Source: Rhodospirillaceae bacterium
GTDB taxonomy: Bacteria; Pseudomonadota; Gammaproteobacteria; Burkholderiales; SG8-41
Length of the DNA stretch: 64,000 bases
Assembly: GCA_050260255.1 (NCBI GenBank)
Contig: JBLNBW010000107.1
Coordinates: 1,848 to 65,847, forward strand
Reading direction: 5' to 3'
A program made the translations under genes and the position numbers. Below the pieces are notes generated by a model, which saw nothing but the letters and a program-made list of their open reading frames with translations, ran no database searches and was not told where the DNA came from. Of the stretch, positions 2,691 to 61,785 are shown piece by piece. Numbering within the stretch: position 1 is the stretch's first letter; each line of letters begins with the position of its first letter.

Positions 2691-3703
2691 TGCCCGCGCT
2701 CCCGCACCCACGGCATCGCGATGTGCACCTCGTAGCTGTTGTCGCGCACGCGCGTCTCGAGACTCGCCTCCGCGTCGAAATGCAAAGCGAGCCGCTCGCG
2801 AATGTTCCCCAGCGCCATCTTGTTGCCGCCGTGGTGATTGCCGCTGCGCTCATACGGATTGCGCAGCCGTATGTGCAGCTGATCGCGGCGCGTGTAGATG
2901 TCGACCACGATAGGACCGGGGCTCACGTGCGGCTCTATGCCGTGATACACGGCGTTCTCGAGCAGCGGCTGCAGCACGAGCGGTGGGACGAGCGCGCTGC
3001 GGGGCATCTTGTCCACGTGCCACACAACCTGCAGCCGCTCGCCCAGCCGCAGCTGCTCGATGTCGAGATACTGCTTGCAGAGCTCGACCTCATGCGCGAG
3101 CGTCGTGAGCTCGCGATTGTCCGCCATCAGCACGCGAAAAAGACCGGCGAGATCTTCGAGCGCTGTCTCCGCACGGCGCGGATCTTGGCGTATCAGCGAC
3201 AGGACCGCATTGATGCTGTTGTAGAGGAAATGCGGGCGTATGCGCGCCTGGAGCGCCTGGAGTCGGGCTTCGCTCAGCGCGGGCGAGAGCGCGCGGCCGC
3301 GCAGGTCAAGGTAGAAGAGCAGCGCGACCGTGACCATGAACGTGAGCAGCAGCGCGCGCGGCAGCGGACCGAGTCCCAGCGCAAGCACGGGTTGGGCAGC
3401 CGCGTGAAGAGCAGCGGCGAGCGCGAGCTCGAGCACGATCACGGCCGCGAGCGCAAGCGAATACGGCAGTCGCTGCAGCACGCCGTTCAACGCCATCAGC
3501 AGAAGCAGGCTCGCGATGAGCAGCGGCTGAACCACCGCTGCGATCTCCGGCACTTCGCTCCAGAACTCGCGCCAGCTTGCGACGCTGACAATGGCGGCGG
3601 CGATGGCGAAGAGATTCGCCATCACGATGATGCGCAACAGAATGCCGAGGTTGCGGAAGTTCGGCAGGGCGCTGCTGTAAGCGTTTTGATTTATACTTGC
3701 CAT
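2687..3703 (-). CDS. algZ: LytS/YehU-type sensor histidine kinase (AlgZ/FimS-like)
   Basis: Multi-TM N-terminus, H box RIRPHFLYNSINAV, N box LQPLLENAVYHG. Start set at MASINQ (3703): the 18 extra upstream codons (to 3757) use rare codons. Start uncertain. Confidence 0.8.
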   Translation of the reverse strand: MASINQNAYSSALPNFRNLGILLRIIVMANLFAIAAAIVSVASWREFWSEVPEIAAVVQPLLIASLLLLMALNGVLQRLPYSLALAAVIVLELALAAALHAAAQPVLALGLGPLPRALLLTFMVTVALLFYLDLRGRALSPALSEARLQALQARIRPHFLYNSINAVLSLIRQDPRRAETALEDLAGLFRVLMADNRELTTLAHEVELCKQYLDIEQLRLGERLQVVWHVDKMPRSALVPPLVLQPLLENAVYHGIEPHVSPGPIVVDIYTRRDQLHIRLRNPYERSGNHHGGNKMALGNIRERLALHFDAEASLETRVRDNSYEVHIAMPWVRERGQ

Positions 3704-51634: not shown

Positions 51635-51765
51635 CGATGCGGAATGCGCTGCGAAAAAAGCTGCGTATTTTAAAGAAGACCGGCACACCCAGCCACTCCG
51701 TACATGCTGATGTGAGGCAGTTGCACACGCGGGTGTCGAGATGAGGTACGGCCGTACGAATCGCT

Positions 51766-55222: not shown

Positions 55223-56710
55223 TTACGAATCGGGCGGCCGATCGGCCGGCGTCTGCGGCGTTTCGGCGTCCTCGTCGGAAGGTATGGCGTCCGCGATGCT
55301 TTCTTCGGCGAGCACTTCATCCACGGGCGCCGCGGCGCGCCGACGGGGCAAGGCAAAGCTCACCACAGCCGAAAGCGCCCACAGCCCGCAGCCGATCCCG
55401 GCAATCGCGTCATACCCGCGGTCGAGCGGCAGCATGCGGCCCGCCGGCGTATACGCGTCCAGTACCGCGGCACTCAGCGCGCTTCCAGTCGAATAGCCGA
55501 TGTAGCGCAGCACGAGATTGAAGCTCATGGCAGAGCCCGTCTCGTGCACCGGCACCGCGCGCACGATCAGCGCCGGCATGGCCGCAAACGTGCAGCTCAC
55601 GCCCAGGCCCGCTACCGCCATGACCACGAAGACCTGCCACAGGCTCGACCGCGCGTAGGTAAACGTCAGCATCGCCATGACGAACATCACGCAGCCGATA
55701 GGCAGCACGAGCTCGGCAGAGGTCCGTTTGGCGATCCACGGCGCCAGTCGGCTGGCCGCAACACTCGCTGCCGAAAACGGCAACAGCACGAGACCGGCCA
55801 GAACGATGGACGCGCCGAAACCGTAACCCGCGTCGGTCGGCGTTTGCACGTAGCGCACGATCGTCGCCAGCAGCAAGTACATTCCCACGCCGGCCAGCAG
55901 CGCCGTCACATCGGCCGTAAGGACCGAGCGGTGCCGCGCGAGCCGCAGGTCGACGAGCGGATGCGGCGTGCGCAACTCGTGGCGCACCCATGACGCAAGC
56001 AGCACGACCGATGCAGCGACCAGCGCGACGAATGGCAACGAGTCCCATCCCCAATGCTTGCCCTGTGTAATCGCGAGCAACAGTGCGGCAAGGCCTCCGC
56101 CCAGCAAGATTGCGCTCAGCACGTCGAGCCGCGACGCTTGCTGCACGGACGATGCGGGCAACACGGCAATCGCGGCGGCAAGGGCAGCGCCGCTCACCAT
56201 CGCGCCGAACTGAAAGCCGGCGTGCAACCCGAATTGTTGTGCAATAAAGCCAGTGATCGGATAACCGAGTCCGACACCGGCCACGGTCGTGATCGACAAC
56301 AGCGCGATCGCGGAGCGCGACCGATCGTGCGGCAGAGCGCTGCGCGCAGTCGCCATGGCAAGCGGCGTGAGTCCTATGCCCAAGCCCTGCAGTCCTCGTC
56401 CGATGATCAGGGCGGGAAAGCCGAGAGGCAGCGCCGCGAGCATGCTGCCCGCCACCACGCCGATGAGGGCGATCAGTATGACCGCCTTTCGGCGCGGGCC
56501 ATCGCCCAGCCGTCCTATCGTCGGCGTCGCAAGCGCACCGACGAGCAGCGTGATCGTCAATGACCACTGCGCCGCGCCCAGTGAAACACCATAAGTGCTC
56601 GCGATCGCCGGGATCAGCGGCGCGCCCAGGCTGCTCACCACAGCGACGACCATGCCGAGGAAGACGAGGGTCGGCACGAGCGCACGCACGCGCCAAGATG
56701 GCGCCGGCAT
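55223..56710 (-). CDS. MFS transporter, 14-TMS drug:H+ antiporter (EmrB/QacA-like)
   Basis: Long polytopic ORF 55223..56776. Start placed at MPAPSWRVRAL (alternative at 56776). Acidic C-terminal tail. Confidence 0.85.
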   Translation of the reverse strand: MPAPSWRVRALVPTLVFLGMVVAVVSSLGAPLIPAIASTYGVSLGAAQWSLTITLLVGALATPTIGRLGDGPRRKAVILIALIGVVAGSMLAALPLGFPALIIGRGLQGLGIGLTPLAMATARSALPHDRSRSAIALLSITTVAGVGLGYPITGFIAQQFGLHAGFQFGAMVSGAALAAAIAVLPASSVQQASRLDVLSAILLGGGLAALLLAITQGKHWGWDSLPFVALVAASVVLLASWVRHELRTPHPLVDLRLARHRSVLTADVTALLAGVGMYLLLATIVRYVQTPTDAGYGFGASIVLAGLVLLPFSAASVAASRLAPWIAKRTSAELVLPIGCVMFVMAMLTFTYARSSLWQVFVVMAVAGLGVSCTFAAMPALIVRAVPVHETGSAMSFNLVLRYIGYSTGSALSAAVLDAYTPAGRMLPLDRGYDAIAGIGCGLWALSAVVSFALPRRRAAAPVDEVLAEESIADAIPSDEDAETPQTPADRPPDS

Positions 56711-57041
56711 GTCAGGCAATGAGCTCACCAATGATCGGTTGCGGGATGTCGGAAAAAGGCCCTGCGGCACATGCAAGAAGCGGCCCGGACTTTAACGCAT
56801 GCGCACGCACGTGCACGGCCGGTCGGGACCGCCGGCCCGTGGGTGCGTCCCGATCCCATGGCTGTGCTCCGAGCGACATGGCATAAAATGGTCGGCACAC
56901 GGGTTCGATCGTCACAATAATGGATCTCTGCACATCCGCCCATTTTTCATTGCACGTCTGCCGATATGTCGGGCGCCGACATGTATGGACCCGCGCCGTG
57001 AAGGGCTGTCCACGCCGGTCTTCTCGTGATGCGCTGATGTC

Positions 57042-58295
57042 ATGAGCGATACAGCGACGGACAAGGCGCGCGAGGCGGCCGAGCGACTCTATCGAACCGA
57101 GTCGCGGCGCGTCCTCGCGACACTGATACGGCTGCTCGGCAGCTTCGACCTCGCCGAAGAAGCGCTGCACGATGCATTCGCGGCGGCGGTCGAGCAATGG
57201 CCAATCGAAGGCATCCCGCACAACCCGCGCGCCTGGCTCGTGTCCGCCGGACGATTCAAGGCTATCGACCGAATACGTCGCCGCGCGAAATTCGATGCGA
57301 CGCTTGCCGAGCTTGCGCGCGAGCTCGACGAGGATGCGGAAATCGCGCCGGAGCCCGATGCGGACAGCGTGCAGGACGATCGTCTGCGCCTTGTATTCAC
57401 GTGCTGCCATCCGGCGCTGCCCCCCGATGCGCAGGTCGCGCTCACGTTGCGCGAGGTATGCGGCCTCACCACGGAGGAAATCGCCCACGCATTCCTCACC
57501 GCGCCGTCCACGCTCGCGCAGCGCATCGTGCGCGCCAAGAACAAGATACGCGCCGCGCGCATTCCCTATCGAGTGCCCACGCAGGAGGATTTGCCCGAAC
57601 GCCTAGACGCCGTGCTGCGCGTGATCTACCTTGTATTCAACGAAGGTTATTCGGCGTCGTCGGGCGAATTGGTCACGCGCCACGATCTCTCGGGCGAAGC
57701 GATCCGTCTCGGCCGGCTGCTGGTGGAGCTTCTGCCCGAGCCCGAAGTGCTGGGACTGCTCGCGCTCATGCTGCTCCAGGAATCGCGACGCGCGGCCCGC
57801 ACGTCCGCCGAGGGTGAAATCATTCTGCTCGCCGATCAGGATCGCACGCTGTGGAACCGTGAGCAGATCGCCGAAGGCCATGCGCTGGTGCAACGCGCGC
57901 TGTCGTCTCAGCGGATCGGGCCCTATGCATTGCAAGCCGCCATCGCAGCGGTACATGCCGAAGCGGCGAGCGAGGCCGACACCGACTGGCCGCAGATCGT
58001 TGCGCTGTACGATGTGCTCATGCGCGTGCATCCCACACCGGTGGTCGCACTCAACCGCGCGGTCGCCGTCGCGATGCGGGATGGCCCGCAAGCGGGTCTT
58101 GTCATCGTCGACGCTCTTCTCGCCGCAGGCGATCTCTCCGATTATCACTTGGCACATGCGGCCCGCGCCGATCTCTGCCGTCGGCTCGGCCGGAAAGCCG
58201 AAGCCCGCGCATCGTATCGGCGCGCGCTCTCGCTCGTACGCCAGGCGCCCGAACGGCGCTTTCTCGAACGCCGGCTCGCCGAACTCGCCGGCTGA
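57042..58295 (+). CDS. ECF sigma factor with a long C-terminal TPR-like extension (ECF42-type)
   Basis: 417 aa. Sigma2 (NPRAWLVSAGRFKAIDRIRR), sigma4 (ALTLREVCGLTTEEIAHAFL...AQRIVRAKNKI), then a ~230-aa extension (VIYLVFNEGY...). Adjacent YCII/DGPF genes. Confidence 0.88.
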   Translation: MSDTATDKAREAAERLYRTESRRVLATLIRLLGSFDLAEEALHDAFAAAVEQWPIEGIPHNPRAWLVSAGRFKAIDRIRRRAKFDATLAELARELDEDAEIAPEPDADSVQDDRLRLVFTCCHPALPPDAQVALTLREVCGLTTEEIAHAFLTAPSTLAQRIVRAKNKIRAARIPYRVPTQEDLPERLDAVLRVIYLVFNEGYSASSGELVTRHDLSGEAIRLGRLLVELLPEPEVLGLLALMLLQESRRAARTSAEGEIILLADQDRTLWNREQIAEGHALVQRALSSQRIGPYALQAAIAAVHAEAASEADTDWPQIVALYDVLMRVHPTPVVALNRAVAVAMRDGPQAGLVIVDALLAAGDLSDYHLAHAARADLCRRLGRKAEARASYRRALSLVRQAPERRFLERRLAELAG

Positions 58296-58313
58296 CCACC
58301 GCTTCTCGCCCGA

Positions 58314-58340
58314 TGTCGATTTGCGGGAGCGCCATTCGAC
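58314..58340 (+). promoter_or_regulatory. candidate ECF42-dependent promoter P1 (TGTCGA-N17-CGAC)
   Basis: cgATGTCGATTTgcgggaGCGCCAttCGACTA, 34 nt upstream of the YCII gene ATG. Nearly identical block at 58772-58798. Confidence 0.6.
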
Positions 58341-58373
58341 TAGGATAGTGTCCCGCTCACTTTGGAGAACCCC

Positions 58374-58757
58374 ATGAAGTTCCTGTGTTTGATCTGCGCG
58401 GAAAAGGTCATGGAACAGATGCCGGAAGCCGATGCGGCGGCGCATTACCGCGAATATGCTGACTTTACGGAATCGATACGCCGCAGCGGCCATTTCATAG
58501 ATTGCAATCGCTTGCTGCCTGCAGCGACGGCCACGACAATACGGGTGCGCAAAGGCGCGATCACCGCGACCGACGGCCCGTTTGCCGAAACGAAGGAACA
58601 GTTCGGCGGCTATTACGTGATCCGAGCGCGCGATTTGAACGAGGCTATCCTGGTCGCCTCCAGGATTCCCGGCGCGGCGCGTGGTTGCGTGGAAATCCGG
58701 GCGATCGCTGATGATCAGCAGACGGTGCAGGCGCTCGGATTGCCCGGCGCCGCCTAG
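58374..58757 (+). CDS. YCII-related (DGPF) domain protein
   Basis: MKFLCLICAEK..., TDGPFAETKEQFGGYYVIRARDLNEAILVASRIP: the classic YCII/DGPF pattern. 127 aa. Confidence 0.88.
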   Translation: MKFLCLICAEKVMEQMPEADAAAHYREYADFTESIRRSGHFIDCNRLLPAATATTIRVRKGAITATDGPFAETKEQFGGYYVIRARDLNEAILVASRIPGAARGCVEIRAIADDQQTVQALGLPGAA

Positions 58758-58771
58758 GCCGACGTTTACGA

Positions 58772-58798
58772 TGTCGATTTCGGCATGCGCCAAACGAC
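58772..58798 (+). promoter_or_regulatory. candidate ECF42-dependent promoter P2 (TGTCGA-N17-CGAC)
   Basis: cgATGTCGATTTcggcatGCGCCAaaCGACTA, 32 nt upstream of the second YCII ATG. Same spacing as P1. Confidence 0.6.
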
Positions 58799-58829
58799 TA
58801 CAAGCAGCTAACCCATTGGAGGAGAACGC

Positions 58830-59207
58830 ATGAAGTATCTTTGCCTGGTCTATCTGGACGAGCGCCGTTTGGACGAGCTGCCGGACGAAGACTGCGTCGC
58901 TTACGACGCATCGATACGGGCGAGCGGCCACTGCATTGCGTCCGAAGCGCTCGAATCCGTGCAGACCGCCACAACGGTCCGCGTGCGCGACGGCAGGGTG
59001 TCGGTCACCGACGGGCCGTTCGCCGAAACCAAGGAACAGCTCGCCGGCTTCTACATGATCGATGCGCGCGACCTCGACGAAGCCATCCACATCGCGTCGA
59101 AAATCCCGCCGGCGCGCGTCGGCAGCATCGAAGTTCGTCCCGTGCGGCCGATACGCGAGACGGTCGCCCAACGCAAAGCGCCCGCTGTGGCAAAGGAGGC
59201 ATCATGA
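58830..59207 (+). CDS. YCII-related (DGPF) domain protein
   Basis: MKYLCLVYLDE..., TDGPFAETKEQLAGFYMIDARDLDEAIHIASKIP. GGAGGAG SD. Stop overlaps the next start (ATGA). Confidence 0.9.
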   Translation: MKYLCLVYLDERRLDELPDEDCVAYDASIRASGHCIASEALESVQTATTVRVRDGRVSVTDGPFAETKEQLAGFYMIDARDLDEAIHIASKIPPARVGSIEVRPVRPIRETVAQRKAPAVAKEAS

Positions 59208-60328
59208 AACTCTTGATCACCGTAGCCACGCGCAAGGGCGCGTGGCTGTATCACGGCACTTCTGCGCGCGATACCTGGCGTGTAGACGGCCCGCATTTCC
59301 TCGGCCACGTGATCAGCCAGGTGGTGCTCGATCCGCGCGATCGCACGACGCTGCTTGCAGCGGCTAAAACCGGGCATCTGGGCCCCACGATCTTCCGCTC
59401 CACCGATCTCGGTCGTACCTGGAAAGAAGCCGCACAGCCGCCGGCTTTCGCCAAGGCGACGGCCGGTGCGCAGGGCCGCTCGGTCGATCACACGTTCTGG
59501 CTGACGCCGGGGCCGGCGAGCGAGCGCAACGTGTGGTACGCAGGCACCTCGCCGCAAGGTCTTTTCCGCTCCGAAGACGGCGGCGTGACGTGGCAGCCGT
59601 TTTCCACCATCAACGAGGACCCGCAGTACCGCAAATGGATGGGCACCGTGCAGGACGGAACGCCCGATGGGCCCAAGCTGCACTCCATCATCGTCGATCC
59701 GCGCGATCCGGCGCACATGTACTTTGCGATGTCGGGCGGCGGCGTTCACGAGACGCGCGACCGCGGGCGCACGTGGACTCCGCTGCTCAAGGGACTCGAG
59801 GTAGTCGAAGGTTTCGATCGCAGCGAGCCGACCTTTCACGACCCGCATTGCATTCGCATGTGTCCGACCAATCCGGACCGTCTCTATCAGCAGAATCACT
59901 GCGGCATTTACCGCATCGACCGCCCGTCCGACGTGTGGCTGCGCATCGGCAAAAACATGCCGGCGCACGTCGGAGACATCGGCTTTCCACTGGTCGTCCA
60001 TCCGCGCGATGCGAACGCCGCGTGGGTGTTTCCGATGGACGGCACGACGGTATGGCCGCGCACGAGCCCGGACGGCAAACCGGCGGTGTACGGCACGCGC
60101 AATGCCGGTGAAACGTGGGATCGGCTCGATGCAGGCTTGCCGCGCGAGCAGGCATGGTGGACCGTGAAGCGTCAGGCCATGACGGCCGATGCAGCCGATC
60201 CCGTCGGGCTTTATTTCGGCACGACGAGCGGCGAGCTCTGGGCGAGCCGCGACGAAGGTCGGAACTGGGCGTGCATGGCGCAGCATCTGCCGGAGATCTA
60301 CGCAGTGGACGCGGCGCAACTCGAGTAG
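59204..60328 (+). CDS. BNR/Asp-box beta-propeller protein (sialidase-fold, Ycf48-like), cytoplasmic
   Basis: AAGGAGG SD. Repeated S/T-x-D-x-G-x-T-W boxes (STDLGRTWK, SEDGGVTWQ, TRDRGRTWT, NAGETWD, SRDEGRNWA). No signal peptide. 374 aa. Confidence 0.8.
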   Translation: MKLLITVATRKGAWLYHGTSARDTWRVDGPHFLGHVISQVVLDPRDRTTLLAAAKTGHLGPTIFRSTDLGRTWKEAAQPPAFAKATAGAQGRSVDHTFWLTPGPASERNVWYAGTSPQGLFRSEDGGVTWQPFSTINEDPQYRKWMGTVQDGTPDGPKLHSIIVDPRDPAHMYFAMSGGGVHETRDRGRTWTPLLKGLEVVEGFDRSEPTFHDPHCIRMCPTNPDRLYQQNHCGIYRIDRPSDVWLRIGKNMPAHVGDIGFPLVVHPRDANAAWVFPMDGTTVWPRTSPDGKPAVYGTRNAGETWDRLDAGLPREQAWWTVKRQAMTADAADPVGLYFGTTSGELWASRDEGRNWACMAQHLPEIYAVDAAQLE

Positions 60329-60337
60329 CCGTCGGCG

Positions 60338-60595
60338 ATGAAAGTACTGATACCGAGCGCGCTGCGGTCCTACACCGAAAGCAGCATCGCCGAAGCGAGC
60401 GGCGCGACGCTCGCCGAAGTGCTGGCCGACCTGGATCGCCGCTACGCAGGCATACGGTTCCGCATGGTCGATGAGCAGGATCGCATACGGCGTCATATCC
60501 GCGTGTTCGTAAACGGCGAGCAGGTGCACGACCTCGCCCGAACCCTGGCGCCGGCCGATGAAGTCGTCATCGTGCAGGCCTTGAGCGGCGGCTAG
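60338..60595 (+). CDS. MoaD/ThiS-family ubiquitin-like beta-grasp protein ending in Gly-Gly
   Basis: 85 aa. ...HIRVFVNGEQVHDLARTLAPADEVVIVQALSGG*. Starts 9 nt after the propeller gene stop. Confidence 0.78.
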   Translation: MKVLIPSALRSYTESSIAEASGATLAEVLADLDRRYAGIRFRMVDEQDRIRRHIRVFVNGEQVHDLARTLAPADEVVIVQALSGG

Positions 60596-60667
60596 CGGCC
60601 GAATCGCGCGCGACACCATCGACTCGAGGCAAGCGTCCGATCGACGCGACACCGAAGGGAGAACACC

Positions 60668-61084
60668 ATGCGATACATGATCCTCGTGAAAGCGACCAAG
60701 GATTCGGAAGCCGGCGTGATGCCTCCCGAGCATCTCATCGCCCAGATGGCGGCCTTCCACGAAGAACTCGCGCAAGCCGGCGTGCTCGTCGACGCATCCG
60801 GGCTGCAGGCGAGCTCGAAAGGATGGCGCGTACGCTACAACGGGAGCGAGCGGACGCTAATCGACGGTCCGTTCACCGAGACCAAAGAACTGATTGCGGG
60901 CTACACGATCATCCGCGTGAACTCGCCAGAAGAAGCGCTGGAATGGTCCTTGCGCTTTCCCAATCCGTCCATCGACGGCAGACACGCAGAAATCGAAGTG
61001 CGGCGCTTCTTCGAGCTGGACGATTTCGGTCGCAGCAAGGCGGTAGACCGCTTTCGCGAGCTCGAAGCGAGCAGGGCCGCGTAA
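60668..61084 (+). CDS. YCII-related (DGPF) domain protein
   Basis: MRYMILVKATKDSEAGVMP..., IDGPFTETKELIAGYTIIRVNSPEEALEW. GGGAGA SD. 138 aa. Confidence 0.9.
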   Translation: MRYMILVKATKDSEAGVMPPEHLIAQMAAFHEELAQAGVLVDASGLQASSKGWRVRYNGSERTLIDGPFTETKELIAGYTIIRVNSPEEALEWSLRFPNPSIDGRHAEIEVRRFFELDDFGRSKAVDRFRELEASRAA

Positions 61085-61109
61085 CGAGCGCACCACCGGA
61101 GAGACGAAT

Positions 61110-61532
61110 ATGAAAATCGAGCCTTATCTTTTTTTCGAAGGTCGCTGTGAAGAAGCCATCGAGTTCTACCGCAACGCGGTCGGCGCGGAAGTTTTGATGC
61201 TGATGCGCTACAAGGACAGTCCCGAAACGCCGCCGCCAGGCCAATTGCCGCCCGGTTCCGAGCAGAAGATCATGCATGCGTCGCTGCGCATCGGCGAAAC
61301 GAACGTCATGGCCTCCGACGGCTTCTGCAGTGGAGCGACGAAATTCCAGGGGTTTTCGCTGTCGCTTACCGCAAAGAACGAAGGCGAAGCGGACAAGCTG
61401 TTCGCTGCGCTGAGCGATGGCGGGCAGGTTCAGATGCCGCTTGGGAAGACGTTCTTTTCGACGCGTTTCGGCATGCTGGTCGATCGCTACGGGGTGTCGT
61501 GGATGATCATCGTGCCCGCCCCCGAACGCTGA
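61110..61532 (+). CDS. VOC/glyoxalase-fold protein (PhnB-like)
   Basis: MKIEPYLFFEGRCEEAIEFYRNAVGAEV...IMHASLRIGETNVMASDG...DRYGVSWMI: the PhnB/3-demethylubiquinone-MTase-like family pattern. Confidence 0.88.
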   Translation: MKIEPYLFFEGRCEEAIEFYRNAVGAEVLMLMRYKDSPETPPPGQLPPGSEQKIMHASLRIGETNVMASDGFCSGATKFQGFSLSLTAKNEGEADKLFAALSDGGQVQMPLGKTFFSTRFGMLVDRYGVSWMIIVPAPER

Positions 61533-61549
61533 CCGCAGCGAAGCGGCGC

Positions 61550-61583
61550 AAAAAAAAAGCAGGGCGAACGCCCTGCTTTTTTT
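61550..61583. terminator. bidirectional rho-independent terminator
   Basis: AAAAAAAAA-GCAGGGCG-aa-CGCCCTGC-TTTTTTT, between convergent genes. Confidence 0.9.
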
Positions 61584-61599
61584 CGCGTGCGACCCGCGC

Positions 61600-61785
61600 T
61601 TAGCGCTTGGTCTTGGACTTTGTTTTCGACTTGTCCGATTTGTGCATGTCGTCGCTGCCTTTTTTCGCGTCCTTGGTCGCGGCCGGCTTCTTCGTCTCTT
61701 TAGCGGTATCCGCAGCGAAGCCGGAAACGGATGAGAAGGCAAACGCACCGGCAATGGCAATGGCAATGGCAATGAGCTTGTTCAT
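61600..61785 (-). CDS. small secreted Lys-rich low-complexity protein
   Basis: AGGAGGAG SD. Signal peptide MNKLIAIAIAIAGAFAFSSVSGFA, then a KETKKPAATKDAKKGSDDMHKSDKSKTKSKTKR tail. 61 aa. Confidence 0.7.
   Translation of the reverse strand: MNKLIAIAIAIAGAFAFSSVSGFAADTAKETKKPAATKDAKKGSDDMHKSDKSKTKSKTKR

Follow-up and report, generated by a model that had tools for sequence, protein, structure and literature searches.

Two Repeated Blocks before YCII Genes Are Very Probably Promoters of an Adjacent ECF42-Type Sigma Factor

In the window, by which we mean the whole 64,000-nucleotide stretch of DNA that was analysed, two similar blocks of 32 nt stand before two tandem YCII genes. Judged on sequence, these blocks are very probably promoters, here called P1 and P2, for RNA polymerase with the ECF42-type sigma factor whose gene lies next to them (57042–58295). 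The promoter pair is a further instance of the published ECF42 module. Only two points about it are mildly new: the extended conservation of WTT and CCR, and a -10 form that follows the subfamily of the sigma factor.

The Gene Cluster and Its Repeated Blocks

The cluster, with the predicted promoters and the terminator at its end, is laid out as follows.

57042–58295, + strand: gene for an ECF42-type sigma factor of 417 aa, with sigma2, sigma4, DUF6596 and a TPR-like C-terminal extension (Pfam, NCBIfam, AlphaFold, Foldseek)
58314–58342, + strand: predicted promoter P1, with -35 TGTCGA at 58314–58319 (and TTT to 58322), extended -10 CCATT at 58332–58336, -10 CGAC at 58337–58340 and TA at 58341–58342
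58374–58757, + strand: YCII-1, 127 aa (Pfam YCII, E = 1.5e-17), with a DGPF motif seen in the translation
58772–58800, + strand: predicted promoter P2, with -35 TGTCGA at 58772–58777 (and TTT to 58780), extended -10 CCAAA at 58790–58794, -10 CGAC at 58795–58798 and TA at 58799–58800
58830–59207, + strand: YCII-2, 125 aa, with a DGPF motif (Pfam YCII, E = 6.4e-23)
59204–60328, + strand: BNR/Asp-box beta-propeller protein, 374 aa, placed in the same operon as YCII-2 (Pfam Sortilin-Vps10, BNR)
60338–60595, + strand: ThiS/MoaD-like protein, 85 aa, with a C-terminal GG (Pfam ThiS, E = 2.4e-12)
60668–61084, + strand: YCII-3, a DGPF-motif protein of 138 aa (Pfam YCII)
61110–61532, + strand: PhnB/YjdN-like VOC (glyoxalase-fold) protein, 140 aa, last in the unit (Pfam 3-dmu-9_3-mt, Glyoxalase; NCBIfam YjdN-like)
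61550–61583, no strand assigned: strong bidirectional intrinsic terminator (A9, GC-rich hairpin, U7)

Read directly from the sequence, block 1 is CGATGTCGATTTGCGGGAGCGCCATTCGACTA (58311–58342) and block 2 is CGATGTCGATTTCGGCATGCGCCAAACGACTA (58769–58800). They are identical at 25 of 32 bases, are picked up by a repeat search of the window as family D7 (32 nt, 78% identity), and have three exact sub-blocks of 12, 6 and 6 nt in common, namely CGATGTCGATTT, GCGCCA and CGACTA. The pattern TGTCGA-N17-CGAC is equally spaced in the two. The initial annotation had called the blocks near-identical with the same 17-nt spacing, and this observation is confirmed. When the two intergenic regions were shuffled 5000 times, the best 32-mer match was at most 22 bases, and none of the 5000 shuffles reached the 25 observed. 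Across the window as a whole, the loose pattern TGTCGA-N15-19-CGAC has three matches against 1.65 expected, which is not significant; the third of them, at 3061–3088, is at chance level. P1 lies 19 nt past the sigma stop codon, and P2 within the 72-nt gap that separates YCII-1 and YCII-2. The blocks do precede the two YCII genes, as had been noted, P1 before the ATG at 58374 and P2 before the ATG at 58830. The distance from block end to ATG is 31 nt and 29 nt, respectively, and not the 32–34 nt given at first.

YCII-1 and YCII-2 are tandem paralogues with the blocks in equivalent positions (repeat families D1 and D7), and a tandem duplication might have left the similarity of the blocks behind as a functionless remnant. 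We regard this as practically out of the question. The duplication is an old one: the two proteins agree at 49% of their amino acids and the third codon positions at 40%, which is near saturation, and the intergenic regions can be aligned solely in the blocks and the ribosome-binding sites. Since the paralogues are old and the flanks unalignable, the identity of the blocks is kept by selection rather than left over from a recent duplication. The 24 of 24 bases kept in the three sub-blocks are more than neutral sequence of such age would retain. A remnant is further contradicted by the occurrence of the motif in unrelated genomes and in unlinked loci of the same genome, described below. An RNA element was also considered and rejected: there is no Rfam match in 56500–61500, and the folds of the two intergenic regions do not surpass those of shuffled sequence (z = −0.97 and +0.12).

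The Sigma Factor

The gene at 57042–58295 encodes the only ECF42-type sigma factor of the genome; a genome search finds it to be the sole DUF6596 sigma factor of the 5.06-Mb assembly. Pfam places Sigma70_r2 at residues 16–83 and Sigma70_r4_2 at residues 119–169. The protein thus has regions 2 and 4 only, the ECF type, and NCBIfam assigns it to TIGR02937 sigma70-ECF. Beyond this core, Pfam detects DUF6596 at residues 187–286 (133 bits) and, under the curated cut-off, a weak TPR_2 match at residues 370–398; there is no Pfam match to a SnoaL domain. The AlphaFold model has a mean pLDDT of 84, with residues 220–417 mostly above 90, and its C-terminal half consists of paired helices. The top Foldseek matches of the model are the consensus-TPR, TTC0263 and PEX5 TPR domains, and ECF sigma factors are matched too. 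By sequence, the PDB matches are ECF SigE, SigH and related factors, and no solved structure in the PDB was found to cover the C-terminal extension. The same architecture of a sigma core and a TPR-like extension has been described for ECF42 (PMC8999054, PMC9023288, PMC7826278), and YCII-related (DGPF) genes are conserved near ECF42 sigma genes (PMC8999054). Here, the sigma gene is flanked by a divergent MFS transporter gene upstream and by the YCII genes downstream, and Pfam finds no anti-sigma domain in eight neighbouring proteins. At the start of sigma4 is a CCHP motif (C121 C122 H123 P124; 57402–57413) that is invariant in 33 of 33 aligned homologues; it could make the protein sensitive to redox state or to metals.

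There is no ECF42 site upstream of the sigma gene, where the best score of the weight matrix described below is −11. We therefore rejected autoregulation of the gene through this motif. A consensus scan of the upstream region gives only a weak sigma-70-like match at 56892–56921. Downstream of that match, 60 nt before the sigma start codon, lies a 17-nt palindrome, ATGTCGG-GCG-CCGACAT (56966–56982). With a matrix score below 0 it does not qualify as an ECF42 site, but expression of the sigma gene could be controlled from it as an operator.

Recurrence of the Motif beside Homologous Sigma Genes

The motif was sought in 80 foreign loci with sigma homologues, which have 66–78% protein identity to the sigma factor of the window and come from genomes assigned to no fewer than 12 phyla. 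In 66 of these loci the sigma strand carries one or more strict TGTCGA-N17-CGAC sites, and 14 loci are without any. Altogether the loci, 514 kb in length, hold 86 strict sites on the sigma strand, where about 0.6 per strand would be expected from base composition. Fifty-two of them lie 9–187 nt past the sigma stop codon, and another 15 lie 410–640 nt before the sigma start, which is space for one YCII-sized gene. When both strands are counted, a YCII gene comes directly after 58 of 90 sites, and BNR or VOC homologues come after others.

The consensus of the 86 foreign sites is TGTCGAWTT-N9-CCRWW-CGACTA. Positions outside the search pattern are conserved in it: WTT after TGTCGA, CCRWW before CGAC, and TA after CGAC, with the final A in 84 of the 86 sites. 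Both P1 and P2 match this consensus throughout. Since both match CCRWW, part of the GCGCCA sub-block can be assigned to an extended -10 element.

The motif could also be seen as an operator. TGTCGA and TCGAC(A) make up an imperfect inverted repeat, in which GTCGA and TCGAC are reverse-complementary and about two helical turns apart, and the pattern is found on both strands in a few loci (L014, L044, L060 and contig C217 of the same genome). The blocks might then be bound by a dimeric transcription factor instead of serving as sigma promoters. That reading is extremely improbable given the details of the sites. The flanks are asymmetric, with WTT after the left half and CCR rather than AAW before the right half. 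A palindrome needs an A after CGAC, whereas the base there is A in 3 and T in 69 of the 86 sites. The asymmetric motif is always oriented with the downstream gene and stands at promoter distance from the start codon. Finally, the motif co-occurs and covaries with the sigma factor and not with any transcription-factor gene.

Tandem pairs of the motif, 70–165 nt apart within one intergenic region and before one gene, are seen at L029:4300/4368, L037:4278/4386 and L042:4226/4391. It follows that doubled promoters recur in the ECF42 regulon.

The sigma subfamily itself is unusually conserved, at 66–78% identity across bins of at least 12 phyla, which include Pseudomonadota, Planctomycetota, Gemmatimonadota, Acidobacteriota, Chloroflexota and Cyanobacteriota. 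The tree built from 81 sigma proteins resolves poorly: its shape is that of a star, just 10 branches are well supported, and the phyla are intermixed. The conservation across phyla could reflect very strong constraint or frequent transfer of a cassette of sigma gene, promoter and YCII gene.

Sites in the Rest of the Genome

A 29-nt weight matrix was made from the 86 foreign sites only, and both strands of the genome containing the window (10 Mb) were scanned with it. The sites, with their scores and the genes that follow them, are given here.

P2, window 58772: 37.4 bits, genome rank 1, then YCII-2
P1, window 58314: 34.3 bits, genome rank 2, then YCII-1
C283:1981: 33.6 bits, then AHSA1/SRPBCC
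C283:3152: 31.3 bits, then AHSA1/SRPBCC
C217:6701: 27.0 bits, then PhnB-like VOC

A genome-wide search for the motif had been proposed along with the initial annotation, and this one returns the blocks of the window as the two best matrix sites of the whole 5.06-Mb genome. Nothing above 18 bits appears in the reversed-sequence control, and a weak match in the window at 51734 (14 bits) is at chance level. The exact 13 bases of ATGTCGA-N17-CGACTA are found four times in the genome, against about 0.07 expected. The C283 sites stand before three AHSA1/SRPBCC genes in total. The PhnB-like VOC gene at C217:6773–7300 has a premature stop after 95 codons, and its conserved C-terminal part (...GGQESACGWCKDKWGVNWQITP...) goes on in a different frame. 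A frameshift of one base seems to be the cause, so that the gene is a pseudogene or the assembly is in error.

Linkage of Motif and Sigma Factor across Genomes

We asked how the motif is distributed relative to the sigma factor by searching 121 genomes of the same order for the strict motif and for a DUF6596 sigma factor. The sigma factor is present in 32 of the genomes and the strict motif in 8, with 0 for the backwards control. All eight motif-positive genomes have the DUF6596 sigma factor, and the motif is found in 0 of the 89 genomes that lack it (hypergeometric p ~1e-5).

Of the 24 sigma-positive genomes without the strict motif, 19 supplied a covariation set of 20 sigma loci. In six of these loci the sigma factor is 69–72% identical to that of the window. 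Five of the six are near TGTCGA...CGAC[T/C]A, one of them (L094) with GGTCGA as its -35, and the sixth, that of G055, is near neither. Where the sigma factor is 47–53% identical to that of the window, 9 of 10 loci show TGTCGA...CGTCGT. Sigma factors 69–78% identical to that of the window go with CGAC[T/C]A, and so each sigma subfamily has its own -10 form.

The linkage bears on whether the adjacent sigma factor is the one that reads the blocks. Related ECF groups have similar -35 and -10 cores (compare ECF41 and RpoE9), and the blocks might be real ECF promoters that are read by another ECF sigma factor of the genome, such as one with a related specificity of the GTC...CGTC type, the adjacency to ECF42 being incidental. 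We think this very improbable. The 52 downstream sites all fall no more than 250 nt past the stop codon of the same type of sigma factor in many phyla, the motif is missing from every one of the genomes without a DUF6596 sigma factor, and the -10 form switches with the subfamily of that same factor.

The linkage has exceptions. G055, which is of the same family and has the sigma factor, shows nothing recognisable as the motif up to 11 kb away from the sigma gene. Together with the foreign loci that lack the strict pattern, it indicates that sigma factor and motif are very commonly linked, yet not universally at such stringency. In G106 the one site present is 1.8 kb downstream from the sigma gene. 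G055 and G106, the nearest relatives, are thus of little use for footprinting. That the blocks are ECF42-type promoters, with TGTCGA as -35 and CGA/TC as -10, had been put forward at the start. The architecture of the sigma factor, the foreign-site matrix, the co-occurrence, the -10 covariation and the promoters of S. meliloti (see the last section) all agree with it.

The Proposed Transcription Unit and Mechanism

In a consensus scan, neither the gap from the sigma gene to YCII-1 nor that from YCII-1 to YCII-2 shows a terminator. Past the sigma gene, a single terminator is convincing, that at 61550–61583. It is central in a 101-nt stretch (61525–61625) that folds with −46.3 kcal/mol (z = −3.5), with the A9, the GC hairpin and the U7 in the middle. 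Since there is no terminator before 61550, P1 and P2 are expected to transcribe YCII-2-BNR-ThiS-YCII-3-VOC jointly. The probable output of the pair is thus YCII-1 and YCII-2-BNR-ThiS-YCII-3-VOC, ending at 61550–61583.

Within this unit, the YCII-2 stop overlaps the BNR start (ATGA), and all three YCII proteins contain a literal DGPF. The 72-nt gap before YCII-3 (60596–60667) has no ECF42 motif, the best matrix score being −2.9, and a separate ECF42 promoter for YCII-3 was rejected on that ground. The same gap contains CGCGACACC twice (60609–60617 and 60645–60653) and ATCGAC twice (60618–60623 and 60640–60645), and it has no significant fold. The BNR propeller lacks a signal peptide and is encoded 10 nt upstream of the ThiS/MoaD-like GG protein, inside the ECF42 operon. 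In L024 and L064, BNR homologues come directly after the ECF42 motif; this order shows that the pairing of BNR with the ECF42 regulon recurs.

The binding of the sigma factor to its sites, the start positions and the extent of the operon are what we infer in the following scheme. Sigma region 4 would read the -35 element TGTCGA(TTT), and sigma region 2 would read the -10 element CGAC(TA) plus the conserved CCR-WW just upstream of it, across a fixed 17-nt spacer between TGTCGA and CGAC. Transcription is predicted to begin about 9 nt past CGAC, near 58349 for P1 and near 58807, a G, for P2, which would give leaders of about 25 and 23 nt. These positions are taken from the S. meliloti SMc01149 start, which was mapped 9 nt after the -10. 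P1 would transcribe YCII-1, and P2 would reinforce YCII-2-BNR-ThiS-YCII-3-VOC up to the terminator. The three unlinked sites, before AHSA1/SRPBCC and PhnB-like VOC genes, would complete a small regulon, in which the sigma gene itself is not autoregulated through the motif. Presumably the TPR-like extension at its C-terminus gates the activity of the sigma factor, which has been proposed for ECF42 in general (PMC8999054, PMC9023288). A variant of the scheme is that WTT and CCR, the latter 3–5 bases upstream of CGAC, are contacts made by the sigma4-proximal DUF6596 and not by regions 2 and 4. We consider this variant unlikely; if it were true, it would explain why ECF42 factors need the extension for activity, and CGACTA and CGTCGT would then be two orthogonal specificities, traceable to identifiable residues of sigma2.

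If the promoter reading is correct, it would assign a regulator to a six-gene operon and three unlinked promoters of a Burkholderiales-like genome that is otherwise uncharacterised. A small and clean regulon is predicted, comprising YCII/DGPF proteins, AHSA1/SRPBCC proteins, PhnB-like VOC proteins, and the BNR propeller with the ThiS-like protein. It may lend itself to work on what ECF42 systems sense and do. For annotation and for the engineering of orthogonal switches, the matrix from many phyla and the subfamily-dependent -10 form should be useful.

Comparison with Known Systems

ECF41 promoters have the form TGTCACA...CGTC, and examples of the group are the ECF41 factors of R. sphaeroides and B. 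licheniformis, M. tuberculosis SigJ and S. meliloti RpoE9. As in the sigma factor of the window, it is a fused C-terminal domain that regulates and not an anti-sigma factor. The -35 also begins with TGTC in both, and the ECF41 -10 contains CGTC. The differences are in the nature of the extension, the rest of the -35 and the neighbouring genes. The ECF41 extension is a SnoaL_2/NTF2 fold, whereas that of the window is DUF6596 plus a TPR-like part with no SnoaL match. The -35 is TGTCACA in ECF41 and TGTCGA in the window. The neighbours of ECF41 genes are typically carboxymuconolactone decarboxylase or oxidoreductase genes, whereas here they are YCII genes. On the absence of SnoaL, the TPR-like C-terminus and the TGTCGA -35, we rejected membership of the window's sigma factor in ECF41. 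The promoter of S. meliloti RpoE9 reads CCATGTCACA...CGTC (PMC6180224).

With ECF42, as represented by S. meliloti RpoE10 and the ECF42 proteins of S. venezuelae, the window shares a sigma2–sigma4 core with an extension of about 200 aa that ends TPR-like. It also shares the lack of an anti-sigma gene, the adjoining YCII/DGPF genes, the bipartite promoter TGTCGR-N17-CG(A/T)C, and targets that are small YCII, SRPBCC-like and glyoxalase-fold proteins. For S. venezuelae, Liu, Pinto and Mascher are said to have described, in 2018, TGTCGA and CG(A/T)C before DGPF genes. A full-text literature search found no paper combining TGTCGA with ECF42.

In S. meliloti, over-expression of RpoE10 induces two operons, which encode a predicted hydrophobic-ligand-binding-domain protein, two glyoxylase-like-domain proteins and one protein without a predicted function (PMC6180224). 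The AHSA1/SRPBCC and PhnB-like VOC targets on C283 and C217 resemble these. RpoE10 promoters are TGTCGG-N17-CGTC, the start of SMc01149 being mapped 9 nt after CGTC, and one of them stands before the YCII gene beside rpoE10; the motif is present there, yet that gene did not respond to over-expression of RpoE10 (PMC6180224). The window differs from these systems in three ways. Its subfamily has CGACTA where S. meliloti RpoE10 has CGTC. Its sigma gene comes first and is without a motif of its own, whereas many homologues lie behind a motif-driven YCII gene. Finally, its operon adds the BNR propeller and the ThiS-like GG protein.
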